Positions 1 to 38,355 of a DNA stretch of 38,625 bases are shown in pieces. The translations under genes and the position numbers were made by a program. The notes beneath the pieces are model-generated. The model did no database searches. It saw only the letters and a list, made by a program, of their open reading frames with translations, and was not told the DNA's origin. Origin of the DNA: a virus; UHGV virus genome UHGV-1545242; one strand, 5' to 3'. How positions within the stretch are numbered: position 1 is the stretch's first letter; each line of letters begins with the position of its first letter.

Positions 1-46
1 TTAACAGCTAACTCATAGCAACTCATTCCTATTCAGATACTAATTT

Positions 47-74
47 AACCCTCTGTTTTTACAGAGGGTTTTTG
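47..74 (+). repeat. Left copy of boundary direct repeat (attL candidate); forms hairpin CCCTCTGT-tttt-ACAGAGGG followed by T-run
   Basis: aaccctctgtttttacagagggtttttg; matches 38328-38355 except 2 loop positions. Confidence 0.65.
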
Positions 75-125
75 TTTTTATGTATTCATTTCTATTCACT
101 CTACACCATATTTTTCGTCGGTACA

Positions 126-136
126 GGTGACGGTAT
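126..136. promoter_or_regulatory. GGTGACGGTAT 11-mer, candidate integrase arm-type site (left)
   Basis: Identical 11-mer recurs at 38201-38211 near the other prophage end. Confidence 0.35.
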
Positions 137-150
137 TACCTTAAAGGTAT
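136..150. promoter_or_regulatory. TTACC-N5-GGTAT near-palindrome upstream of integrase
   Basis: ttaccttaaaggtat; one mismatch from the TTACC-N5-GGTAA motif. Confidence 0.4.
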
Positions 151-192
151 ACTCTCATACCGTCATGAAAATGGTTTCTATACGGGTGAATT

Positions 193-1449
193 GTGCTTAC
201 CGATACAAAATTAAAAAACCTCAAGCCGCAGGACAAACTGTACAAGGTCTCCGATCGTGACGGGCTGTATGTAGCTGTGCTTACGTCAGGCACGGTCTCG
301 TTTCGCTATGACTACCGTATCAACGGTCGCCGCGAAACACTGGTAATCGGGCAGTATGGGCGTGACGGTATCAGCCTGGCAGAAGCGCGAGAAGAACTGA
401 TTGCTGCAAAGAAGCTGCTTAAAGCAGGCCAGTCACCGGCTGCGGCTAAACGTGACGGTATCAAAAAGATTCGTGGTGCCGAGACGTTTGCGGTACATAC
501 CGACAGTTATATGAAACACGTCATCCTGGCTGACAGTACCCGCGCAATGAAGCAGGCGGTGATCGACCGTGACATACTTCCTGTTCTTGGTAACAAAATG
601 ATGGCTGAAATTACCACATCGATGGTTCGTGATTTGTGTGACCGGATTGTCGAACGCGGTGGTCGGGCAACAGCAGTACAGGCCAGGGAGATCATCAGCA
701 GCGTATACCGTCACGCCAATGACCGTGGTCATGGTTTGTTTAATCCTGCGGCTGACATTAAACCTTCGTCTATCGCCATATTTAAACCACGAGAGCGAAC
801 ACTGACACCAGAAGAAATTGGCCTGTTCTTCCGCACGCTGGATGCCATTGGTGCTATGGGCACTATGAAAATGGCTTTAAAACTGGTGCTTATCACTATG
901 GTTCGTAAGGGCGAATTCACCAATGCAACGTGGGATGAAATAGATTTTAAAAAATGGACATGGACAATTCCTTCAGACCGCATGAAGGGAAGCCGGGCGC
1001 ATGTTATTTACCTGCCTAAACAGGCTCAGGATATATTGGTCGGGTTGCAGATGTGCGCTGGTGGAAGTGAATATCTGGTTCCTGGTCGTTACAATTTCCG
1101 GAAGCCATTATCTAATGCCGCGCTGAACTCTCTGATCGACAGAACGGTGAAAATAATAAATGAAGATGGTGAGCATATTCAGGGCTTCACCGTACACGAT
1201 ATGCGCCGTACAGCCAGTACGTTGTTGCATGAGGCTGGTTATCCTTCAGACTGGATTGAAAAGGCTCTGGCACATGAGCAGAAAGGTGTGCGCGCCGTAT
1301 ATAACAAAGCGGAATACGCCAGACAGCGCGCCTACATGTTGCAGCAGTGGGCCGATATGATTGATTCCTGGATTAACGGGGAGCATACAGATCTGATTCC
1401 GTTCTCCCCGTCGAAGTTTGAGAGGTGGATGGAAGACAGTAATAAATAA
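193..1449 (+). CDS. int: Tyrosine recombinase, P4-type phage integrase
   Basis: 418-aa ORF; N-terminus LTDTKLKNLKPQDKLYKVSDRDGLYVAV typical of P4-family integrases; C-terminal HxxR..Y region (HDMRRTASTLL...VYNKAEY); GTG start at 193. Confidence 0.9.
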   Translation: MLTDTKLKNLKPQDKLYKVSDRDGLYVAVLTSGTVSFRYDYRINGRRETLVIGQYGRDGISLAEAREELIAAKKLLKAGQSPAAAKRDGIKKIRGAETFAVHTDSYMKHVILADSTRAMKQAVIDRDILPVLGNKMMAEITTSMVRDLCDRIVERGGRATAVQAREIISSVYRHANDRGHGLFNPAADIKPSSIAIFKPRERTLTPEEIGLFFRTLDAIGAMGTMKMALKLVLITMVRKGEFTNATWDEIDFKKWTWTIPSDRMKGSRAHVIYLPKQAQDILVGLQMCAGGSEYLVPGRYNFRKPLSNAALNSLIDRTVKIINEDGEHIQGFTVHDMRRTASTLLHEAGYPSDWIEKALAHEQKGVRAVYNKAEYARQRAYMLQQWADMIDSWINGEHTDLIPFSPSKFERWMEDSNK

Positions 1450-1451
1450 TT

Positions 1452-2111
1452 CTATCCTTCCTGGACTTTGGTAAGCGTCAGATTTCCGCAGAACACTGCG
1501 CCGGTGTCGATGTACATTTGGTTTGCATACACCAGTGGGTGATGTGCTGGCGTATGACCGAAGATGAACAAATCGGCACCGGTTATCTCCGAGACAATAC
1601 CGTCCTGCGCGTCGCTAACCCGCTCACGATTCCATATCACCATTTCTTCCGGTACTGGCTTATCGAATGCGTATTCGTTGTGCGGGTAGTCTGCGTGGCA
1701 GATGACGACCTTCTTATTGCCGGTAACCAGTTCGATAATCATCGGGAGGTTGGTAACCTTTGGCAGAAGGTATTTGAGTTGCACATCCTGCTCAGAATCA
1801 AGTTGGTGCCACCATCCACCGCCGTTTGACATCCAATGTCCGAAACTTCCGCCGTTGACCAGTGCATCCAGCATCATCTGCTCATGGTTGCCACGAACAG
1901 CTCGGAACCACGGCATAGTAATCAAATCCAGGCATTCGACGTTTTCAGCGCCGCGGTCAACAAGGTCACCAACGGAAATAAGCAAATCGCGCGCCGGGTC
2001 GAATGAAACTTTGTCGAGTTCGTTCATCAGCAGTGTGTAGCACCCATGCAGATCGCCGACGACGAAGATATTGCACCAGTCAGCGCCATTGATGCGTTGA
2101 TATAGGTTCAT
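1452..2111 (-). CDS. Ser/Thr protein phosphatase, lambda PPase-like metallophosphoesterase
   Basis: Motifs GDLHG, GDLVDRG, GNHE in translated ORF; start taken at MNLYQ, 4-bp overlap with upstream gene stop. Confidence 0.85.
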
Positions 2112-2758
2112 GCTGCACGCTCCCGCCCCTGGTTGTCTGTTGGTGACAGCGGAGCATTGCTGAATGCATTTGTTAATCCGCCAATATCCAACGCGTATCC
2201 AGGATGTAGTTGCACTGCCGGGTCTTCGCACTGATTACCCCAAACATCGAAACCATGAGACGTCTGGCGGGCGAACAGTTCAATGCGAGAAACATCGCCT
2301 AATAATTGCACAAGTTTTTCACGAACGATATCTGGCTTTCTTGAATGCTCAAGCCGCGGTGCGGTAAATGACTGAACGATCCCTGCATTAATGCGCGTAG
2401 GTAGTTTTCCCTTTACCGCAAACAGGCAATCTTCACTATTGGCGCGAGTCATGTGTCCCATACCCATAACCAGTTTATCTGGTTGTCGACTACCACATTT
2501 TATCCACGTGAAGCCCTTCATCGTCATCAGACGGAATCCCCAGGCTTCAACAACTTTTAGTGCTTCGAGTGGTTGTGTTGGCACCCACCACATGGCCAAC
2601 AGACAGTTTTCATCGGCCAAATCCCACACAGGAAGGCGGTAGATATCCAGCACACTCATAACCGGATATTTAAAACCGGCACCGCGATTACCACCTGCGG
2701 CTTTGTCCCGGTATACCCAGGGTGGATCTGCATAGATTAGTGTGTATTTCTTAGTCAT
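2108..2758 (-). CDS. MT-A70 family DNA N6-adenine methyltransferase
   Basis: Catalytic DPPW motif ([10 protein letters not shown]) near N-terminus; start taken at MTKKYT. Confidence 0.75.
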
Positions 2759-3050
2759 AAACCACCCCACAACATCCTATGCCGCTATAGTCGCCACGGC
2801 GAAGGCCGTTAACTTTTGTGATACATTGGTCCCTGCGAACCGCGATCCTTGCACGTTCAACATCACCAGAAGCAACATCCATACACTGAAGCCAAAGGTG
2901 AGCGGCAATGCGGAATTGCCCTTTTTTCTCTCTTTCAATCGCGCGTTTTTCGATCTCTATCGCCGCAGGAGTAACGGCGACAATCTTTGACGGACTGCGC
3001 ATTGAAACCTTATTCATGTGATATTTTTCAAGTCGGCTTAACTTTCTCAC
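2751..3050 (-). CDS. Hypothetical protein, first gene of the hypothetical-methyltransferase-phosphatase operon
   Basis: 99-aa ORF whose stop overlaps the methyltransferase start; no recognisable motif; start uncertain. Confidence 0.4.
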   Translation of the reverse strand: MRKLSRLEKYHMNKVSMRSPSKIVAVTPAAIEIEKRAIEREKKGQFRIAAHLWLQCMDVASGDVERARIAVRRDQCITKVNGLRRGDYSGIGCCGVVYD

Positions 3051-3159
3051 TTAATCCAACCCTCTCTGAAAATTAATGCCAGCAGATAAAGCCATGCTGA
3101 AACAGAGGCCAGGAATAAGTACCATCCTGACCATTTGCTCCAGTGCCTTAGCAGCGCAC

Positions 3160-3408
3160 TCATGCAGCGTTGCTCACGGGACGATATACACGTTGCTGAA
3201 CAGGAGGCTTTTTACCCTGGAACTCTGCCGGGCTTGCTGCCTGACGTTCATCAAGCCAACGCTCAACTTCATCACGGTTCCATGCGCAGCGTTTATCGGT
3301 GATATACCAGCGTTTAGGAAATTCCCCTGCGCGCTCCATACGGTCGATAGTGCTCCATGACAGTGGCACCACCGCCAGGAGTTCTTTCTTACCTAATGCA
3401 CCTTTCAT
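3160..3408 (-). CDS. AlpA-family DNA-binding protein, probable excisionase/regulator
   Basis: Pattern LLAVVPLSWSTIDRMERAGEFPK...WNRDEVERWL matches AlpA/Xis-type winged helix proteins; position between int side and recombination genes. Confidence 0.7.
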   Translation of the reverse strand: MKGALGKKELLAVVPLSWSTIDRMERAGEFPKRWYITDKRCAWNRDEVERWLDERQAASPAEFQGKKPPVQQRVYRPVSNAA

Positions 3409-3457
3409 GAATACCTCTCTTGGTTGCAGTGCGGCGCACGTGGCGCCGCGGTGGTGG

Positions 3458-4480
3458 TTACTCGAATTCTGGACGCATATCGTTAAGCGTCATCATGAAT
3501 TTTTGGTGATATTCATCACCGAGCTTTTCAGCCATGGTGTTAATTTCATTTTCAGCGCGCTTGAACATCGTTTTTGCATCTTCAGCAGATGGATCCAGGC
3601 TATTAAGTATCGCGATGATATATTCTCGAGCTTCTTCTCGTTCTGAATCTGAAATTGGCGACAGGTGTTGACGCTCATCGTCAACTACGGAATATTCACC
3701 AGTGATAACAGCTGCGTTATCTTGGCTAAGTCCAGCTTCAGCGCGCTCATCCATAACAACAGCCTTCTGCATTTCAATAGAAACAGGAAGATATTTGAAC
3801 AGTCGGCGAATTACTGTTTTTTTAGCCATCTCATCGAAGTGATCAACCCATGGGCCACTGCTACCGGCTTTGCTCAGTGCACGAACTTTCTCAACGTCTG
3901 CCCGGCTCATAACTTCAAATTGGACTCCGCCATCTTTCAGTCGTGCAACGGCGTAAACGTGCGTTAATTCTCCGCGGTCACCTGTTTCGCAAGGTAAATG
4001 CTCGAGCGTTTCTTCCAGGCCGTATGAGTAGCTGAATTTGTCGTTTGTATGTACGGTACGAGCCGAGATACTCAGGATCTGCCCAGAGCGGCGGGCAAGG
4101 TCAATCATTCCGCGATAGCCGATAATCAGCTGTGCTTCTGTAGATACGGTTTCCCATCTTCCATTTACTTTCTGGCGTTTGTCGAACGGTATCAGGTAAG
4201 CGTGTCCAAGAGCTCCGCCTGGTTCAAGACCCAATTGGGCACATTGCATAATTGCCCCCAGGAAGCTGGCTTGGTCGCATGATGCAAGTTTTGGAACCTT
4301 TCTGATCTCTGTGGTTGCTATGCGCGCCAGACGGTCTGCTGTCATGTGCTTTGGAAGTGCCAAAGCCATCTGAGCTTTAATTTTTGGGTCTGCCAGAAGT
4401 CCGGCCAGAGTTGTTGGTTTCTCATTATGATGTGCAACTTGGTTACCGGTAGCCGCTGCCTTAAGTGCATTGATAGACAT
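3458..4480 (-). CDS. recT: RecT-family single-strand annealing recombinase
   Basis: LIIGYRGMIDLARRSGQI and VYAVARLKDGG blocks characteristic of RecT (Rac prophage type). Confidence 0.9.
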   Translation of the reverse strand: MSINALKAAATGNQVAHHNEKPTTLAGLLADPKIKAQMALALPKHMTADRLARIATTEIRKVPKLASCDQASFLGAIMQCAQLGLEPGGALGHAYLIPFDKRQKVNGRWETVSTEAQLIIGYRGMIDLARRSGQILSISARTVHTNDKFSYSYGLEETLEHLPCETGDRGELTHVYAVARLKDGGVQFEVMSRADVEKVRALSKAGSSGPWVDHFDEMAKKTVIRRLFKYLPVSIEMQKAVVMDERAEAGLSQDNAAVITGEYSVVDDERQHLSPISDSEREEAREYIIAILNSLDPSAEDAKTMFKRAENEINTMAEKLGDEYHQKFMMTLNDMRPEFE

Positions 4481-4489
4481 TTTTTCTCC

Positions 4490-5368
4490 TTACTTCATTC
4501 TGAAGACGCGTTGTGTCGTTGTTGTTTTGAATTTTTCGAATAACTCAGGGTGTACTGACTGGAATAGCTTCTGGTCGAATCTGTTGCTGATCTGAGATTT
4601 CCATGTGCAGAGCGGCTTTCCGTCCAGGGTCAGGACTGAGTGCTCTTGCATGTACATCTTCAGCTTCTCTTCTGATATAGCTATTTCTTCTTCCAGTGAT
4701 TTTCTGCGTGATTTCATGTCTCGTAGATCGTTGAATAGTGCGAGTGCCTTTCCGTCAGCCTCGATACTTGTCCCGGCATCTTTCTCAAACATCAGCGATA
4801 CATCGCTTACGCTGGTAGCTTCCGGCGGGTTAAGATTTTTCACTCGGTCCCAGAAAGCGATTTCTTTTTCTAAGATCGCCTGGATAGTTTCTTCATCACG
4901 CTCAACCCGATAGATTCGGAAGTCGTCGCCACCGATAAGCACACCGAAAACGCATACCTGTTTGTTTGTAACCATCAACCCGTGCATGGCCTGGGCCGTG
5001 TAATGCACAGGAATTGCATCTGTCTGGATTTCTCCCCATTCTTTGGCTTTGAACGGACTAACTGTTTTGATCTCAATATTCTCGCCTGACGCTGCTTCTG
5101 CATCGATCTCAGCTGCAATAAAATCGTAATCACGGTGGATATAGCGGTTTCCGCGATGAACGATTTCCATCCCTGTTTCCTCAGAAAGCAGGTCTATTAC
5201 GTATGGCTCCATACGCTGGCCACGCGTGAAAACTTTCTGCTTGCTTGGGTCTACTGGTTTGACACGTGGCTGGACCTTATCCAGATAAACCTCAAGCGGG
5301 GTGCGCCATGGGCTAATTCCAAGAATCCCTGCAACATCGCTTCCTCCGATGTATTTTGTTCTATCCAT
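4490..5368 (-). CDS. YqaJ-type (lambda Exo-like) recombination exonuclease
   Basis: N-terminal GGSDVAGILGISPWRTPLEVY motif of YqaJ viral recombinase domain; immediately upstream of recT; start taken at MDRTKY (ORF extends to 5389). Confidence 0.85.
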   Translation of the reverse strand: MDRTKYIGGSDVAGILGISPWRTPLEVYLDKVQPRVKPVDPSKQKVFTRGQRMEPYVIDLLSEETGMEIVHRGNRYIHRDYDFIAAEIDAEAASGENIEIKTVSPFKAKEWGEIQTDAIPVHYTAQAMHGLMVTNKQVCVFGVLIGGDDFRIYRVERDEETIQAILEKEIAFWDRVKNLNPPEATSVSDVSLMFEKDAGTSIEADGKALALFNDLRDMKSRRKSLEEEIAISEEKLKMYMQEHSVLTLDGKPLCTWKSQISNRFDQKLFQSVHPELFEKFKTTTTQRVFRMK

Positions 5369-5385
5369 GATTCCAGCGTTCCGCA

Positions 5386-5685
5386 TCATGCCGCGTCCCT
5401 CTGCCCATCAAGCTGATCCGCCAGATCCCAGCGCGCTATAATTGCCATTGCCTCGCGCCGGTAGGCATCCATCAGTTCTTCGAACTCAGGGCTGTCTTTA
5501 GCAGCCTCCAGCACTTCCTGACGAACGCCTTTGCCTGTTACAACGTCGAAAGTTGAGGACAGTTGATGAAGTCGGATGCTCTCAATCAGTTCAACTTGTC
5601 GGTCATATAGCTGTTCTGACAGGCGGTAGTCCTTGTCGAATGCCAGCATGATTTTTTGAAGATTTTTCTGCTGATTAACGTTCAT
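5386..5685 (-). CDS. Hypothetical early protein
   Basis: ORF with GGGAGGG Shine-Dalgarno 7 nt upstream of MNVNQQ start; no recognised motif. Confidence 0.55.
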   Translation of the reverse strand: MNVNQQKNLQKIMLAFDKDYRLSEQLYDRQVELIESIRLHQLSSTFDVVTGKGVRQEVLEAAKDSPEFEELMDAYRREAMAIIARWDLADQLDGQRDAA

Positions 5686-5840: not shown

Positions 5841-5921
5841 AACTTGTTACCTCGGTCTGTTACTGTTGGGGTAATAATTATGCTTATTTGGTTTGGTGTC
5901 AATAGATATGAGTTAAAAAAA

Positions 5922-5993: not shown

Positions 5994-6578
5994 TTATTGT
6001 TTGCTTTTTTCGTTCTGGTTGATGACAAATTCAATGTAACTTTCGATCTTTGCTTTCTCGGTTTCGGGTAACAATGCGTAGCGTGAGCGGTCATAGTTGA
6101 TAGTCGCAGGGTCGTGCGGGTGAATCAGTAGTTCATATCCGTGACGCCCGAATGCGGATGCAACATTCTCCAGGGTGGAAATGGAAACGCTGACCTCATT
6201 GTTTAACAGGCGGCTGATTGTCACCTGGGCGACGCCGGATGCGCGGTGAAGTTTTCCCTGCGTTGAAAGGTCGCGGCTTTCGCTCATCCAGCGTTCCAGG
6301 TTGTGAGCCGCCAGCTGACCAATGTCGCTTGGGCCGACAGGCTGAAAACCTTCCTGAGAAAGCGAGCGATCGATATCAAGCCAGTTACGGGGTTTATTGG
6401 CGGCAGCTTCAATTTTTCGCGCAACCTGGTCGCCGATAACCTTCTTGCCAAGAGCCCAGCGGTTTACCAGATTTGCCTGAGTTCCAAGTTTTTCTGCCAT
6501 CCGCGTCTGAACACCATTGAATTCACGGTCGATCAAGTCGTTGAGATTTTGCCTGCGGACGTCCTGGATACTTTTCAT
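5994..6578 (-). CDS. Prophage repressor (CI-like position), HTH DNA-binding protein without S24 peptidase domain
   Basis: Divergent from Cro-like gene; two HTH-like segments (MAEKLGTQANLVNRW; GVAQVTISRLLNNE); no Ala-Gly/Ser-Lys LexA-like autocleavage motifs seen. Confidence 0.7.
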   Translation of the reverse strand: MKSIQDVRRQNLNDLIDREFNGVQTRMAEKLGTQANLVNRWALGKKVIGDQVARKIEAAANKPRNWLDIDRSLSQEGFQPVGPSDIGQLAAHNLERWMSESRDLSTQGKLHRASGVAQVTISRLLNNEVSVSISTLENVASAFGRHGYELLIHPHDPATINYDRSRYALLPETEKAKIESYIEFVINQNEKSKQ

Positions 6579-7329: not shown

Positions 7330-8163
7330 ATGAGCAGACATGCAACAGATTGGGCCTGGGAGACAGATCCAGGTAGCTCATCATTAAAGCTCATACTGCT
7401 CTCGATGGCTGACAGAGCCGATGAATATAACCTCTGCTACCCCAGCATAGAACGCCTCGTTAAAGACACTTGCCTGAATAAAAAAACCGTGCAGGCCGGG
7501 CTTATATCGCTCATGAAAATGGGGCTTATTTCAGATACCGGAGAGAGAAAGGGAGCGACAAAAAGAGTGCGGGTTTTCTCTCTTAATATAACCAAAAACG
7601 GGAACATTAAAGGCAACCGGGAGGGGGGCAATGAACCCGAAAACGGTAATGTTACCGAAAACGGGAATATACCCAAAAACGGGATGTTGAATGATCCCAA
7701 AAACGGGATGTTGAATGATCCCAAAAACGGGATCCAGAACCAGTCATATAACCAGTCATTTAACCAAGAGAGGGAGAGCAGGACAAAAACCGGGGATTCT
7801 GTGCCTCATGACCCCGGCGCAAACAACGCCGTGATGAATAACTTTGTTCCTCCTGGTGGGCCAGGGCAATTAGGTAAATTTGTCATGCATGAACAATGGC
7901 AGCCATCAGATGACTTTCTTCGGAAAAGCTCATTGCAGGGAATCTACCTGGACAGTCTGCCAACGGCACAGGAACTTGCAGAGTTCAGAATTTACTGGAT
8001 GGCTGAGGGTAAGGCATACCATCAGGCACAGTGGGAGCAGAAGCTGGCAAGGCGCATCCAGTTCTGTAGACAGAAATCAGGTGAAGTCAGAAAGAGCCTT
8101 GACTGGCATAACACTGACTGGATAGATGAGGTGTGGGATGAAATCAACTCCAGAACTTCTTAA
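7330..8163 (+). CDS. Replication initiator (lambda O-like / replisome organiser) with internal origin iterons
   Basis: N-terminal HTH region (WETDPGSSSLKLILLSMADRADEYNLCYPSIERL), followed by iteron-encoded repeats and a C-terminal domain preceding the P-like gene. Confidence 0.75.
   Translation: MSRHATDWAWETDPGSSSLKLILLSMADRADEYNLCYPSIERLVKDTCLNKKTVQAGLISLMKMGLISDTGERKGATKRVRVFSLNITKNGNIKGNREGGNEPENGNVTENGNIPKNGMLNDPKNGMLNDPKNGIQNQSYNQSFNQERESRTKTGDSVPHDPGANNAVMNNFVPPGGPGQLGKFVMHEQWQPSDDFLRKSSLQGIYLDSLPTAQELAEFRIYWMAEGKAYHQAQWEQKLARRIQFCRQKSGEVRKSLDWHNTDWIDEVWDEINSRTS
7592..7732. repeat. Iteron array, candidate replication origin inside the initiator gene
   Basis: Six copies of CC(C/G)AAAACGGGA at 7592, 7636, 7655, 7672, 7696, 7720 including a perfect 24-bp tandem CCCAAAAACGGGATGTTGAATGAT; followed by AT-richer direct repeat cagtcatataacc/cagtcatttaacc. 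Confidence 0.65.
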
Positions 8164-15375: not shown

Positions 15376-15452
15376 TGGCGTGGCATGCAGGATTCGAACC
15401 TGCGACCAACCGCTTAGAAGGCGGTTGCTCTGTCCAACTGAGCTAATGCCAC
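15376..15452 (-). tRNA. tRNA-Arg (anticodon UCU)
   Basis: Manual fold of minus-strand sequence: 7-bp acceptor stem GTGGCAT/ATGCCAC, D arm GCTC/GAGC, anticodon stem ACCGC/GCGGT with loop CTTCTAA, T arm GCAGG-TTCGAAT-CCTGC, encoded CCA. Confidence 0.85.
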
Positions 15453-32950: not shown

Positions 32951-35900
32951 ATGACGGTCTCAACCGAAGTTGACCACAACGAATACACCGGTAACGGCGT
33001 TACGACATCGTTTCCGTATACTTTTCGAATTTTCAGAAAATCAGACCTGGTTGTTCAGGTGTCTGACCTGAACGGAAACGTAACAGAATTGGTTCTGGAT
33101 ACCGGTTATACGGTAACTGGGGCGGGCACTTATAGTGGCGGTTCTGTGGTTCTTCCGTCTCCGCTTGCTACTGGATGGCGAATTACGATAGATCGTGTGC
33201 TTGATGTAGTGCAGGAGACAGACCTTCGCAATCAGGGAAAATTTTTCCCCGAAGTGCATGAAGATGCCTTTGACTACCTGACGATGCTGATCCAGCAATG
33301 TTTTGGGTGGTTCAGACGTGCATTGATGAAACCATCTTTGCTTGCAAAATATTACGATGCAAAGCAAAACAAAATTTCTAACCTTGCAGATCCATCATTT
33401 GAGCAGGACGCTGTAAATAATCGCTCAATGCGTAATTATGTCGATGCTGCAATCGCCGGGGTTGTTGGTGGTTTTGGTTGGTTTATTCAGTATGGTTCTG
33501 GGGCTGTGTACCGAACGTTCCAGGATAAAATGCGTGATGCTATTAGCCCCAAAGATTTTGGAGCTGTTGGTGATGGTATAAATGACGATTCCACTGCAAT
33601 AAGCGCGTGCCTTGAAGCCTCATCTCCAGGTTATAAAATTGACGGATTAGGGCTTACTTTTAAAGTATCAACTCTTCCGGATGTCAGTCGATTTAAAAAT
33701 GCTCGTTTTTTATTTGAGAGAATACCGGGCCAGCCTCTTTTTTATGCTTCTGAAGATTTTATCCAGGGAGAGTTATTTAAAATTACAGATACACCGTGGT
33801 ACAACGCCTGGACGCAGGATAAAACGTTTGTATATGACAATGTCATCTATGCGCCTTTTATGGCTGGAGACCGCCATGGTGTAAATAACCTCCATGTTGC
33901 ATGGGTTCGCTCAGGAGATGACGGGAAGACCTGGACAACGCCGGAATGGCTTACAGATTTACATGAAAACTATCCCACAGTTAACTATCACTGCATGAGT
34001 ATGGGGGTTGTCAGAAATCGCCTTTTTGCTGTAATTGAGACGCGGACCGTGAGAGGAAATAAACTGCAGGTTGCAGAGTTGTGGGATCGCCCAATGAGTC
34101 GCAGCCTTCGCGTTTATGGTGGTATAACGAAAGCAGCAAATCAGCAAGTCGCTTATATTCGCATTACTGATCACGGATTATTTGCTGGTGATTTTGTCAA
34201 CTTCTCAAACTCTGGTGTTACAGGTGTTACCGGGAATATGACGGTGACTACTGTTATTGATAAAAATACCTTTACAGTTACGACGCAAAATACCCAGGAT
34301 GTGGATCAGAATAACGAGGGTAGATACTGGAGTTTTGGCACATCATTTCACTCGTCACCATGGAGAAAAACCAGTCTTGGAACTATTCCTTCTTTTGTTG
34401 ACGGAAGCACTCCTGTTACTGAGATTCACAGTTTTGCGACGATTAGCGATAACAGTTTTGCTGTTGGCTACCATAATGGTGATATTGGTCCACGCGAGCT
34501 TGGGATACTCTATTTCTCTGATGCTTTCGGTTCTCCTGGTAGCTTTGTTCGCAGACGCATACCTGTAGAATATGAGGCGAATGCATCTGAGCCATGTGTA
34601 AAATATTATGATGGCATTCTGTATCTGACGACCAGGGGGACATTAAGTACTCAACCCGGTAGTTCATTGCACAGAAGCTCTGATTTAGGTACATCATGGA
34701 ATTCTCTTCGCTTCCCAAATAATGTTCATCACTCAAACCTTCCTTTTGCCAAAGTTGGCGATGAGCTGATTATTTTTGGCAGTGAGCGCGCATTTGGTGA
34801 GTGGGAAGGAGGAGAACCTGATAACCGTTATGCAGGAAATTATCCAAGAACATTTATGACCAGAGTTAACGTCAATGAGTGGAGTCTGGATAATGTAGAG
34901 TGGGTTAATGTTACTGATCAGATTTATCAGGGCGGAATAGTTAACTCTGCGGTTGGTGTTGGTTCAGTTTGTATCAAAGACAACTGGCTGTACTACATTT
35001 TCGGTGGGGAAGACTTTCTAAACCCATGGAGCATAGGGGATAACAACAGAAAATATCCTTATGTTCACGATGGTCACCCGGCTGATTTGTATTGTTTCAG
35101 GGTGAAAATTAAACAGGAAGAATTTGTTTCAAGGGATTTTGTCTACGGAGCCACTCCTAACAGAACGCTTCCTACTTTTATGTCGACGTCAGGCGTGAGG
35201 ACGGTTCCTGTACCCGTTGATTTCACAGATGATGTTGCCGTCCAGTCACTGACTGTCCATGCAGGTACATCAGGACAAGTTCGCGCGGAAGTCAAACTTG
35301 AGGGTAATTACGCCATTATTGCGAAGAAAGTACCGTCTGATGATGTTACCGCTCAGAGATTAATCGTTAGCGGCGGTGAAACAACGTCTTCAGCAGATGG
35401 TGCAATGATAACGTTGCATGGTTCCGGAAGCAGTACTCCACGTCGCGCGGTATATAACGCACTCGAACATCTTTTTGAGAACGGAGATGTTAAACCTTAT
35501 CTTGATAATGTAAATGCTCTTGGTGGTCCGGGAAACAGGTTCTCGACAGTTTATCTTGGCTCCAATCCTGTGGTTACCAGTGACGGAACATTAAAGACAG
35601 AGCCGGTCTCTCCTGACGAAGCATTGCTGGATGCCTGGGGTGACGTCAGGTATATCGCTTATAAATGGCTGAACGCTGTCGCTATAAAGGGGGAAGAAGG
35701 GGCGAGGATACATCATGGTGTAATCGCGCAGCAACTTCGTGATGTTCTTATTTCTCACGGACTCATGGAAGAAGAAAGCACAACATGCCGCTATGCCTTT
35801 CTTTGCTATGACGATTATCCCGCAGTATATGATGACGTCATTACTGGCCAAAGGGAAATGCCGCTGACTGATAATGACGGGAGCATCATTGTTGATGAGG

Positions 35901-36070
35901 ATGATAATCCAGTGATGGTAATAGAAGACATCATTGAGCGCGTTGAAATAACGCCAGCAGGATCTAGATGGGGGGTCAGACCTGATCTCTTATTCTATAT
36001 CGAGGCAGCATGGCAGCGCAGAGAAATGGATAAGATAAAAGAGCGGGTTCAGTCTCTGGAAGAACGTTAA
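32951..36070 (+). CDS. Tailspike/depolymerase with C-terminal intramolecular chaperone (S74-type) domain
   Basis: 1039 aa; conserved N-terminal virion-attachment region; central DFGAVGDGINDDSTAI beta-helix start motif; C-terminal TSDGTLK...YIAYKW...RIHHGVIAQQL pattern. Confidence 0.85.
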   Translation: MTVSTEVDHNEYTGNGVTTSFPYTFRIFRKSDLVVQVSDLNGNVTELVLDTGYTVTGAGTYSGGSVVLPSPLATGWRITIDRVLDVVQETDLRNQGKFFPEVHEDAFDYLTMLIQQCFGWFRRALMKPSLLAKYYDAKQNKISNLADPSFEQDAVNNRSMRNYVDAAIAGVVGGFGWFIQYGSGAVYRTFQDKMRDAISPKDFGAVGDGINDDSTAISACLEASSPGYKIDGLGLTFKVSTLPDVSRFKNARFLFERIPGQPLFYASEDFIQGELFKITDTPWYNAWTQDKTFVYDNVIYAPFMAGDRHGVNNLHVAWVRSGDDGKTWTTPEWLTDLHENYPTVNYHCMSMGVVRNRLFAVIETRTVRGNKLQVAELWDRPMSRSLRVYGGITKAANQQVAYIRITDHGLFAGDFVNFSNSGVTGVTGNMTVTTVIDKNTFTVTTQNTQDVDQNNEGRYWSFGTSFHSSPWRKTSLGTIPSFVDGSTPVTEIHSFATISDNSFAVGYHNGDIGPRELGILYFSDAFGSPGSFVRRRIPVEYEANASEPCVKYYDGILYLTTRGTLSTQPGSSLHRSSDLGTSWNSLRFPNNVHHSNLPFAKVGDELIIFGSERAFGEWEGGEPDNRYAGNYPRTFMTRVNVNEWSLDNVEWVNVTDQIYQGGIVNSAVGVGSVCIKDNWLYYIFGGEDFLNPWSIGDNNRKYPYVHDGHPADLYCFRVKIKQEEFVSRDFVYGATPNRTLPTFMSTSGVRTVPVPVDFTDDVAVQSLTVHAGTSGQVRAEVKLEGNYAIIAKKVPSDDVTAQRLIVSGGETTSSADGAMITLHGSGSSTPRRAVYNALEHLFENGDVKPYLDNVNALGGPGNRFSTVYLGSNPVVTSDGTLKTEPVSPDEALLDAWGDVRYIAYKWLNAVAIKGEEGARIHHGVIAQQLRDVLISHGLMEEESTTCRYAFLCYDDYPAVYDDVITGQREMPLTDNDGSIIVDEDDNPVMVIEDIIERVEITPAGSRWGVRPDLLFYIEAAWQRREMDKIKERVQSLEER

Positions 36071-36075
36071 AAAAA

Positions 36076-36096
36076 AGCCCGCAAAATATTGCGGGT
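36076..36096. terminator. Hairpin after tailspike (possible terminator)
   Basis: AGCCCGC-aaaatatt-GCGGGT flanked by A-run upstream; lacks strong downstream T-run on plus strand. Confidence 0.35.
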
Positions 36097-36376
36097 ATCA
36101 AAAACGGAGTTGGTGAAAAGTTATCTTTGAATTCTATCATGAATCAGTACGTATTTTAAATACATGTTCAGGTTTATTACACCATAGCATTATTAAATAC
36201 AAAATTAAGTCTATGGTTCCTGTACAACTGCCCCCACTCTGCTGGCTCGTTCTGTAAAATCATTAGTACTTTTATTGAGATATATGATATGGAACAATAA
36301 TGATTCATATATGGTTTACTATGCGGGTTTAGTCATCAATAATTGACTGGCTTATAGATAGTAAACAGGAGAAAGT

Positions 36377-36781
36377 ATGTCTGCTCAAGTAACAAGTGAG
36401 CAATTAAATCAGTTGCTTAGTTTTGGTTCTCTTGCTGCAGTTATTGCAGGTGTCCCTCCGGAGGTTGCTTTAGGGGCTTTGGCTGGGGCGGTAATTTTTG
36501 TTACCTCTGCAGTAGAGTACCCCATCCGTCGCCGGGTGCTCCTGTCGATGCTCAGCTTTCTTTGCGGCCTTCTCTTTTACAAACCAGCAGCATCAATTCT
36601 TATCGGCATAGCCAGCCTGATCCCTACCATCACGCAGGACTCTTTTGAAAAAGGGATTGTTTTCTCTGCAGGCGCATTCGTGTCAGCAATTGTCGCTGTG
36701 CGTATTGGTATATGGCTCTATCACCGTTCCGATAATCCACGCGAGTTAATTCCGGGGAGAAAAGACGATGGTAACGCATGA
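36377..36781 (+). CDS. Holin (multi-TMD)
   Basis: Hydrophobic segments separated by short charged loops, charged C-terminus; SD AACAGGAGAAAGT then ATG; precedes endolysin. Confidence 0.7.
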   Translation: MSAQVTSEQLNQLLSFGSLAAVIAGVPPEVALGALAGAVIFVTSAVEYPIRRRVLLSMLSFLCGLLFYKPAASILIGIASLIPTITQDSFEKGIVFSAGAFVSAIVAVRIGIWLYHRSDNPRELIPGRKDDGNA

Positions 36782-38327: not shown

Positions 38328-38355
38328 AACCCTCTGTTACTACAGAGGGTTTTTT
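38328..38355 (+). repeat. Right copy of boundary direct repeat (attR candidate); hairpin plus T-run, rho-independent terminator-like
   Basis: aaccctctgttactacagagggtttttt; near-identical to 47-74. Confidence 0.65.

Follow-up and report, generated by a model that had tools for sequence, protein, structure and literature searches.

Does the pairing of an adenine methyltransferase with a protein phosphatase beside a phage integrase reflect a dedicated functional unit, or do two independent enzymes merely share an operon? The question is raised by virus genome UHGV-1545242, all 38,625 nucleotides of which were analyzed here and are referred to as the window. A preliminary description had seen a coupled three-gene operon next to the integrase and had proposed that the two enzymes act as a two-pronged module against host defenses. 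The reading that we favor, and consider highly probable, is that this segment is the accessory end of a Uetakevirus pL-type operon, with a backbone of PerC and methyltransferase genes, swappable cargo, and enzymes that act independently of each other.

A prophage at the guaA 3′ end

Flanking DNA and gene content mark the window as a complete phiV10/epsilon15-like (Uetakevirus) prophage of E. coli inserted at the 3′ end of guaA. The left neighbor is guaA, the end of which lies directly upstream of the element in genome CP123346. An attL core at 47–73 overlaps the guaA terminator hairpin, with a terminator-like site found at 47–70 by consensus scan, and forms a 27-nt direct repeat of attR at 38328–38354 (93% identical copies, 38,281-nt spacing). 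The adjacent plus-strand gene (193–1449) encodes a 418-aa P4-type tyrosine integrase with Pfam Arm-DNA-bind_3, Phage_int_M, and Phage_integrase domains; it is convergent with the early-left operon, and its stop codon is 2 nt from that of the phosphatase gene.

Phages PAS61 (OQ921333) and BP9 (PP488543) share 98–99% DNA identity with the window across 1–3461, a similarity that holds over int and the phosphatase, methyltransferase, PerC, 38-aa ORF, and AlpA genes, and in this int-to-AlpA part they differ from the window by nothing more than point differences. Gene order in the window is that of PAS61, and order, overlaps, and product names are the same in PAS61, BP9, and RefSeq guaA prophages (e.g., those of APEC O1 and ST131). 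The same genes are present and annotated in PAS61, BP9, and ~144 complete E. coli genomes; the three-gene segment is an already known, correctly annotated, and common prophage segment. Elsewhere, the tailspike ORF (32951–36070) is longer in the window than in PAS61, and the position of the PAS61 O-antigen acetylase holds no ORF of at least 90 aa in the window. For phiV10 (NC_007804), which represents the Uetakevirus type in E. coli, a DNA comparison gave 80% coverage. This phage has the integrase, AlpA, and 38-aa ORF in common with the window, its PerC and MT-A70 methyltransferase are 98% and 97% identical, respectively, and its methyltransferase stop forms an identical ATGA overlap with the following gene. 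That terminal gene, however, encodes a 64-aa DUF1382 protein in phiV10 and the phosphatase in the window, and the integrase ends in WMAGE in phiV10 but in WMEDSNK in the window.

The leftward operon and its overlapping genes

Coordinates and overlaps in the sequence bear out that three minus-strand genes overlap stop to start beside the integrase: the phosphatase gene at 1452–2111, the methyltransferase gene at 2108–2758, and the gene for a 99-aa protein at 2751–3050. An ATGA at 2108–2111 combines the methyltransferase stop with the phosphatase start, and the 8-nt overlap ATGACTAA at 2751–2758 combines the stop of the 99-aa protein gene with the methyltransferase start. The proposal of a coupled three-gene operon was correct as to the overlaps but too narrow, as the chain comprises five genes. 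The fourth is a 38-aa hydrophobic ORF (3047–3163, minus strand) that overlaps its neighbors at both ends, sharing a GTGA with the 99-aa protein gene; judged by its translation, it corresponds to epsilon15 gp32 and phiV10 p35 (“membrane protein”), and counterparts are annotated in phiV10, PAS61, SPC32N, Tyrion, and epsilon15. The fifth, which overlaps the 38-aa ORF by ATGA, is an AlpA/Xis-like gene (3160–3408, minus strand) for an 82-aa protein that matches PF05930 and phrog_66 (“excisionase and transcriptional regulator”), consistent with the annotation of epsilon15 gp33. From these matches, the AlpA-family protein likely serves the P4-type integrase as its excisionase or as a regulator. Since overlaps are present throughout the operon and in its relatives, they are not special to the three genes first noticed, and the E-values of the HMM matches are so low that chance ORFs are excluded.

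Promoters and terminators were called by consensus scans only. A candidate sigma-70-like early-left promoter (TTGACA-17-AATTAT) lies on the minus strand at 5902–5874, just downstream of a repressor gene (5994–6578) and a terminator (5973–5954), and the scan found no minus-strand terminator-like site between this promoter and 1452. This agrees with the earlier placement of the genes at the distal end of an early-left operon. The order of repressor, terminator, and promoter would resemble the lambda cI-terminator-pL arrangement. Two further minus-strand ORFs belong to the same leftward operon and are named from RefSeq and phage annotations of their equivalents: a RecT-like annealing protein (3458–4480) and an exonuclease (4490–5389). 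On the minus strand, a GC-rich hairpin without a T-run (3431–3449) separates the recT stop from the alpA start, and its predicted fold (−17 kcal/mol, z = −1.6) was not significantly stable; at the matching recT-alpA place, epsilon15 has an annotated “transcriptional pausing” stem-loop. An Rfam search of the region gave no matches.

We propose that the AlpA/Xis-like gene, the 38-aa membrane ORF, PerC, MT-A70, and the terminal cargo gene form the distal accessory part of a leftward pL-type operon. The five tightly packed genes would be read from the promoter beside the repressor gene toward the convergent integrase and, to judge from this position, would be expressed together on infection or induction. 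An internal promoter may in addition be active in lysogens, and a stationary-phase promoter reportedly drives transcription of the Stx-phage homologue of the methyltransferase (PMC10810198).

The methyltransferase and the PerC-family protein

The gene at 2108–2758 (minus strand, ATG at 2758) encodes a 216-aa MT-A70 family (beta-class) adenine-N6 methyltransferase, as the preliminary description had recognized from its DPPW motif. The protein matches Pfam MT-A70 (PF05063) over all 172 profile positions with 79.1 bits (cut-off, 23.9) and phrog_359 with an E-value of 1.8e-118. DPPW occupies residues 11–14 (within YADPPWVY, 9–16), placing catalytic motif IV near the N-terminus, and is invariant in the five homologues compared. 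A core of ~187 aa is followed by a 29-aa variable tail; large inserts, of which a target-recognition domain would be one, are absent. The closest solved relatives are the ciliate MTA1 and METTL3. A PADLOC scan of all five proteins returned only generic MTase_II matches for the methyltransferase and nothing for its neighbors. The enzyme is predicted to be a minimal beta-class m6A methyltransferase without a separate target-recognition domain. Beta-class methyltransferases work as dimers (PMC7544214), and this one would probably be dimeric and of low sequence selectivity, acting shortly after the operon is turned on and with nucleic acid of the phage or the host as its substrate.

Whether such an enzyme serves as a “classic anti-restriction” device, as had been suggested, is less certain. 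That it is an orphan was upheld, as its neighbors are the PerC-family and phosphatase genes, with no adjacent restriction endonuclease gene, but the anti-restriction reading is weakened by the closest studied homologue, that of Stx phage PA8, which by itself is only weakly active on DNA and, when joined by a partner protein, acts on 16S rRNA (PMC10810198). Together with this partner, PNB-2, the PA8 enzyme M.EcoPA8orf6770P shows a preference for 16S rRNA and increases spontaneous induction (PMC10810198). Like the window enzyme, M.EcoPA8orf6770P/M.EcoGV of Stx2 phages has DPPW and lies near the int end of its prophage, and, as in phiV10, the next gene after its own is DUF1382. Identity between the two enzymes is 82% over residues 1–187; beyond residue 187, the tails are unrelated.

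These similarities raise the alternative that the window enzyme is mainly a 16S rRNA m6A methyltransferase that tunes induction, either as a homodimer or with the PerC-like protein in place of PNB-2. In its favor, MT-A70 enzymes generally depend on a partner (PMC10810198, PMC7544214), the methyltransferase start lies in an 8-nt overlap with the PerC-like gene, and the C-terminal tail, the proposed partner-binding region, differs between Stx and phiV10 types while being conserved from phiV10 to Tyrion. However, Tyrion has the same tail even though its PerC gene does not adjoin the methyltransferase gene, and one or two genes separate the two in SPC32N, Tyrion, BUCT711, and epsilon15. Stx2 phages carry PNB-2 and AntA upstream of the methyltransferase, where the window has PerC; tblastn detected no PNB-2, AntA (PNB-1), or SPN1S-type DndB-like protein in the window, the best hit of PNB-2 (phage F004) having an E-value of 7.2. 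The window thus lacks both the adjacent, cotranscribed PNB-2 gene and the C-terminal tail of the Stx2 holoenzyme, and because PNB-2 and AntA are absent and the tail differs, the substrate and partner of the window enzyme are uncertain. The authors of the Stx-phage study also note that PNB-2-less variants exist outside STEC and may behave differently, and the modified rRNA base was never mapped (PMC10810198). Data on substrate and specificity of the homologues are mixed (PMC10810198, PMC6602927), and the prophage methyltransferases in an ST131 methylome paper belong to other families. On balance, we regard a primary role in rRNA methylation as unlikely.

The 99-aa protein (2751–3050, minus strand) had been listed as unknown; it can now be assigned to the PerC family. 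It scores 30.7 bits against Pfam PerC (PF06069; cut-off, 22.6), a match confined to profile positions 5–51 of 90 (47/90 aligned), matches phrog_868 (“transcriptional activator”) over positions 1–99 of 99 with an E-value of 5e-61, and is also named PerC in RefSeq; it does not reach the cut-off for ANR, a related model, and a structure search gave no meaningful match to solved structures. Translation would begin at a GTG that overlaps the preceding stop and is preceded by GAGAGGG; from the ATG at 3017, the product would be 88 aa. Like EPEC PerC and the EHEC prophage Pch proteins (PF06069), the protein is small and prophage encoded and exceeds the Pfam gathering score, but it differs from them in its partial profile alignment and in being a conserved backbone gene of Uetakeviruses, with 63–77% identity in epsilon15, SPN1S, Tyrion, and Klebsiella Uetakeviruses. 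By annotation only, yfdM/yfdN of the E. coli K-12 element CPS-53 is a candidate for another PerC-methyltransferase pair.

The phosphatase and its place in a swap slot

The terminal gene (1452–2111, minus strand) encodes a 219-aa lambda NinI-type Ser/Thr (PPP-family) metallophosphatase, and profile matches and motifs confirm the earlier phosphatase call. Its start codon is the ATG at 2111; a 259-aa ORF from a GTG at 2231 was rejected as an upstream extension inside the methyltransferase gene. The protein matches Pfam Metallophos (E = 1.2e-15, 58.9 bits; cut-off, 21.5), phrog_246 (“NinI-like serine-threonine phosphatase”; E = 9e-108), and the lambda phosphatase structure 1G5B (E = 6.7e-100), the last collinearly from residues 1–217 to 1–217. 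The PPP signature motifs GDLHG, GDLVDRG, and GNHE are all present. Equal in length to lambda NinI (ORF221), the protein is 66.8% identical to it and, in an ungapped alignment, shares all metal ligands and catalytic residues (D20, H22, D49, R53, N75, H76, H139, R162, and H186). These residues make it likely that the enzyme is active and, as lambda PPase is, a Mn-dependent phosphoprotein phosphatase. The nearest phage relatives outside the lineage are the NinI proteins of phi80 and HK225 (79%). In lambda, phi80, and HK225, the gene has ninE, ninG, or ninH as a neighbor and belongs to the rightward nin region, which is flanked by the replication genes and Q; in the window, by contrast, it closes the leftward operon and adjoins int. 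In lambda, ninI is dispensable (PMC10695390).

How the gene came to lie here is suggested by pairwise alignment with phiV10. Homology stops after position 1432 and resumes at 2106 (GTTCATGCTG...), and the DNA between (1433–2105), which replaces the phiV10 DUF1382 cassette, holds the 3′ end of int, the 2-nt spacer, and the phosphatase gene minus its first two codons; as identity resumes at 2106, the common ATGAAC start was kept. The last ~5 codons of int (from about 1433) are thus part of the phosphatase cassette, and among 80 IMG/VR loci, the integrase ends in WMEDSNK in all phosphatase carriers and in WMAGE in the others, with identical cassette junction sequences throughout. The base composition of the cassette shows no anomaly. 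The slot holds the phosphatase in 21 of these 80 loci, DUF1382 in 53, and an 82-aa ORF with AntA in 6, and the gene after the methyltransferase is the phosphatase in 144 E. coli genomes versus DUF1382 in 371. The ATGA junction is shared by DUF1382 and the 82-aa ORF, so the overlap characterizes the slot and not the pair. The order PerC, MT-A70, small variable gene, int, with further genes interspersed, is shared by epsilon15, SPC32N, Tyrion, and BUCT711. By these comparisons, PerC and the methyltransferase are genus backbone, and the last position is a swap slot with at least three alternative cargo genes. DUF1382, which also follows the homologous Stx-phage methyltransferase, would be the ancestral slot gene, and its single replacement, by a cassette with a lambda NinI-type phosphatase, also rewrote the last int codons. 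The allele is 98–100% conserved in about 146 E. coli records, and only 1 of 21 IMG/VR copies is truncated; the phosphatase is therefore maintained and may give a location-dependent benefit.

One such benefit would be lysogenic conversion or host modulation, with the phosphatase acting on host phosphoproteins in the manner of PrpA/PrpB, to the advantage of the lysogen or to prime the cell at induction rather than against host defenses. E. coli PrpA and PrpB influence envelope and heat-stress signaling. The slot is hypervariable, like moron sites, its epsilon15 occupant is annotated as a serotype-conversion gene, and the phosphatase carriers include ExPEC/APEC lineages (ST131, ST95, and APEC O1). 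The protein scores 266.1 bits on the PrpA model (NF008516) and 221.5 bits on the PrpB model (NF007425), but both values fall below the NCBIfam equivalog cut-offs (326 and 332, respectively), and orthology to PrpA or PrpB was rejected in favor of a more general relationship. Furthermore, the scan found no promoter-like site directly upstream of the phosphatase gene, making its expression in a repressed lysogen doubtful. We view this cargo role as possible but improbable.

The alternative that drew attention to the locus is that an orphan methyltransferase directed against restriction and a cotranslated phosphatase directed against kinase-based abortive infection were selected as one anti-defense unit. 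Both genes lie in an early operon and would be made before replication, the methyltransferase is flanked by PerC and the phosphatase without a nuclease, and the ATGA overlap is kept, with the phosphatase conserved in about 144 genomes. Orphan methyltransferases of phages and prophages are frequently protective. Such protection is touched on in a passage of the discussion in PMC4659465, and Ser/Thr phosphorylation plays a part in the conflict between phages and their hosts (PMC13645617, PMC11341870). The genomic distribution, however, argues against a dedicated unit. All copies of the phosphatase allele sampled at ≥95% DNA identity adjoin MT-A70, and the next relatives (79%) are in nin regions. 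Adjacency in independent lineages was not found, and the pairing instead traces to a single origin tied to the int C-terminus and is a minority state. None of 80 loci with phosphatase homologues from other species had an MT-A70 gene within 3.5 kb, and in BUCT711, another Uetakevirus, the phosphatase gene belongs to the early-right operon and is distant from the methyltransferase gene. The ATGA junction accepts DUF1382 and the 82-aa ORF as well, and the nearest studied methyltransferase alone gives only weak DNA methylation (PMC10810198). The phosphatase had no match in PADLOC, which holds defense-system models only; no paper was found that ties NinI-type phosphatases to counter-defense, and in a T7-kinase paper phosphatases appear solely as reagents.

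Given the single entry, the alternative cargo, the lack of linkage at those 80 loci, and the separation in BUCT711, the proposal of a two-pronged module was not supported, and selection of the two genes as one anti-defense unit appears quite unlikely. As far as these genome comparisons go, the methyltransferase and the phosphatase do not make up a conserved module. We consider very unlikely a version in which the phosphatase was captured to reverse Ser/Thr/Tyr phosphorylation by a host kinase immunity system or a rival phage kinase, forming an early counter-defense pair with a promiscuous m6A methyltransferase that shields phage nucleic acid and of which the PerC-like protein is possibly a partner subunit. 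With no conserved linkage between them, the phosphatase and the methyltransferase most likely act independently.

If the reading of an accessory operon end with independent enzymes is right, little changes in how this segment is understood. Its modest value is that of a clear case from nature in which the int-proximal end of an early operon serves as a cargo-swap slot, where one fixed translational-coupling junction (ATGA) takes at least three different genes. PAS61, with the phosphatase, and phiV10, with DUF1382, are matched natural variants for probing the role of lambda-type phage phosphatases. As a PNB-2-less relative of the Stx-phage rRNA methyltransferase, the MT-A70 enzyme could help to settle whether the substrate of this family is DNA, RNA, or both.

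Overlapping genes next to the integrase

The three minus-strand ORFs of the preliminary description lie where it placed them, and its assignment of a methyltransferase and a phosphatase, with their motifs, coupling, and location, was right. The phosphatase gene (1452-2111, minus strand; ATG at 2111) encodes a 219-aa, full-length relative of the bacteriophage lambda protein phosphatase that is collinear with PDB 1G5B over 217 residues (E=6.7e-100), is 66.8% identical to the lambda enzyme with 9/9 metal-binding and catalytic residues kept, and matches phrog_246, "NinI-like" (E=9e-108). The methyltransferase (2108-2758, minus strand; 216 aa) has a match spanning the entire Pfam MT-A70 profile, with DPPW at residues 11-14. 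The 99-aa protein (2751-3050, minus strand), previously described as unknown, belongs to the PerC family: it scores above the Pfam PerC threshold, matches phrog_868 end to end, and is already named "PerC family transcriptional regulator" in RefSeq. Annotation of its start is inconsistent: PAS61, RefSeq genomes, and epsilon15 use a GTG (99 aa), and the phiV10 RefSeq record (L001 3781-4047) uses an ATG (88 aa). The GTG has the better purine-rich site upstream, overlaps the preceding stop, and yields the full-length phrog_868 match.

The overlaps are ATGA at 2108-2111 (methyltransferase/phosphatase) and ATGACTAA at 2751-2758 (PerC/methyltransferase), and Shine-Dalgarno-like purine-rich stretches lie 5' of each start. 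The three-gene chain was thus confirmed, but the overlapping unit is longer, comprising five genes with a conserved hydrophobic 38-aa ORF (3047-3163, minus strand; GTGA overlap with the PerC start) and an AlpA/excisionase-like gene (3160-3408, minus strand; ATGA overlap with the 38-aa ORF). Similar tight packing was seen throughout the operon in every relative examined.

A recT gene and an exonuclease gene lie upstream on the same strand. Consensus scans placed the sole minus-strand promoter-like site of the stretch at 5902-5874, just past the repressor gene (5994-6578) and its terminator (5973-5954), with no minus-strand terminator-like site after it before the inside of int. This layout resembles lambda cI-terminator-pL, and from the scans and the analogy we infer that infection or induction would switch on the operon, the excisionase-like gene included. 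The integrase gene int (193-1449, plus strand) is convergent with the operon, its stop codon 2 nt from that of the phosphatase gene with no terminator (1447-1454), so transcripts running on leftward past the operon would be antisense to int. Together with an RNase III site annotated in the corresponding spacer of epsilon15, which is longer (L010 2798-2836), this arrangement suggests retroregulation of int, possibly altered by the cassette swap described below.

Backbone and cargo among relatives

From PerC to int, phiV10 carries PerC, MT-A70, DUF1382, and int; epsilon15 has PerC, a 35-aa ORF, MT-A70, a 60-aa "serotype conversion" gene, and int; SPC32N has PerC, a 52-aa ORF, a DndB-like gene, MT-A70, a 59-aa ORF, and int; Tyrion has PerC, a 59-aa ORF (DUF1317 in RefSeq), a 75-aa ORF, MT-A70, a 68-aa ORF, and int; and BUCT711 has PerC, DUF1317, MT-A70, a 63-aa ORF, and int. 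Comparison of these gene orders identifies PerC and the methyltransferase as genus backbone and the position between the methyltransferase and int as a variable slot. Unlike the window, BUCT711 carries a 68%-identical phosphatase in its rightward early operon, adjoining a replication gene. An 82%-identical MT-A70 gene is followed by DUF1382 in the unrelated Stx2 phage F004, and MT-A70-DUF1382 seems to be the older combination.

Across the 80 closest IMG/VR loci, the slot holds DUF1382 in 53, the phosphatase in 21 (one truncated), and in 6 a third cargo, in which an AntA-like gene comes after an 82-aa ORF; the ATGA junction is identical for all three cargo types. The methyltransferase-DUF1382 junction was present in 371 of 5,426 complete E. 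coli genomes and the methyltransferase-phosphatase junction in 144. The third cargo (L031 4648-5877; also L053, L063, L089, and L090) begins with the 82-aa ORF (MKQIMVAHNGVR...), its second gene being an AntA-like antirepressor gene; in L053, additional genes follow where int would be.

In alignment with phiV10, near-identity ends within the last int codons (after 1432) and resumes at 2106, the common ATGAAC start overlapping the methyltransferase stop. The int C terminus reads WMEDSNK in every phosphatase carrier with a visible int end and WMAGE or a close variant in all loci lacking the phosphatase, a linkage that indicates entry of the phosphatase by one insertion event. A base-composition check of the cassette showed nothing unusual. 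The phosphatase allele (at least 95% DNA identity) occurs in 146 E. coli records, adjoining the MT-A70 gene in each one sampled. Its next relatives (~79%) are nin-region genes of phi80-/HK225-type phages, adjoining ninE, and within 3.5 kb of 80 homologous phosphatase genes in other bacterial species no MT-A70, PerC, or window-type integrase gene was found.

The methyltransferase and phosphatase had been proposed to form a dedicated two-pronged anti-defense module. Conservation of the phosphatase allele and the predicted early expression are compatible with such a module, but the pairing reflects one cargo swap and is the less common state, the coupling junction belongs to the slot, and the two genes are unlinked in other genomes; we therefore regard the proposal as very unlikely. 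Defense-system profiles and literature searches yielded nothing that ties NinI-type phosphatases to counter-defense.

Predicted activities of the two enzymes

The phosphatase has everything required for its predicted lambda-PPase-type activity. Lambda NinI itself is dispensable (PMC10695390). Assignment as an equivalog of E. coli PrpA/PrpB was rejected, with scores under both cut-offs.

The methyltransferase, an orphan, consists of a catalytic core of ~187 aa and a short variable tail, with no insert big enough to form a target-recognition domain. Among solved structures, those of ciliate MTA1 and human METTL3 are its nearest relatives. Enzymes of the beta class act as dimers, either homo- or heteromeric (PMC7544214). 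Of the homologues that have been studied, the closest is M.EcoPA8orf6770P from Stx phage PA8, which is weakly active alone. It binds the protein encoded by the upstream gene PNB-2 in a 1:1 complex, after which 16S rRNA is its preferred substrate, and it increases spontaneous induction of the prophage (PMC10810198). The related M.EcoGV methylates GATC upon overproduction (PMC10810198) and is listed as a GATC enzyme (PMC6602927). Since PNB-2 was not found in the window and the C-terminal tail differs from that of the Stx-phage enzyme, neither Stx-phage result transfers directly. Our best guess is that the window enzyme works as a dimer and, early on, places m6A with low specificity on phage or host nucleic acid, where it may serve either DNA protection or RNA modification. 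In the Salmonella phage SPC32N, the gene immediately before MT-A70, which overlaps with it, encodes a 355-aa DndB-family (ParB-like) protein (L005 1937-3004). SPN1S-type Uetakeviruses have such a gene before MT-A70; its product differs from PNB-2, the partner in Stx phages, and may be another partner-subunit solution.

The prophage and its cargo-swap slot

The window spans the complete genome of a temperate Uetakevirus of the phiV10/epsilon15 type, inserted directly past guaA: its start is the end of guaA in genome CP123346, and a flanking 27-nt repeat (47-73 and 38328-38354) overlaps the terminator hairpin of guaA. Over the first 3.46 kb, identity is 98-99% both to PAS61 and BP9, which are isolated phages, and to E. 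coli chromosomes numbering in the hundreds; PAS61 has the same gene order along the window. A tRNA-Arg gene (15376-15452, minus strand; anticodon TCT, for the rare AGA codon) separates the terminase region from the portal gene. Four ~24-nt direct repeats (7584-7736; consensus GAATRATCCCAAAAACGGGATGTT) within ORF 7330-8163 look like replication-origin iterons, because the PAS61 counterpart of this ORF is annotated as primosomal protein I. The tailspike ORF (32951-36070) encodes 1039 aa versus about 745 aa in PAS61, and no ORF of at least 90 aa lies between it and 36377 (36070-36377), where PAS61 has an O-antigen acetylase. Receptor specificity is probably different, and the O-antigen acetylase conversion gene is probably missing.

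The arrangement at int is not new: published phage genomes and RefSeq already contain and annotate it, and its families are well known. What remains of value is a neat illustration of a cargo-swap slot, together with natural matched variants for testing the roles of phage phosphatases and of MT-A70 enzymes that lack PNB-2.
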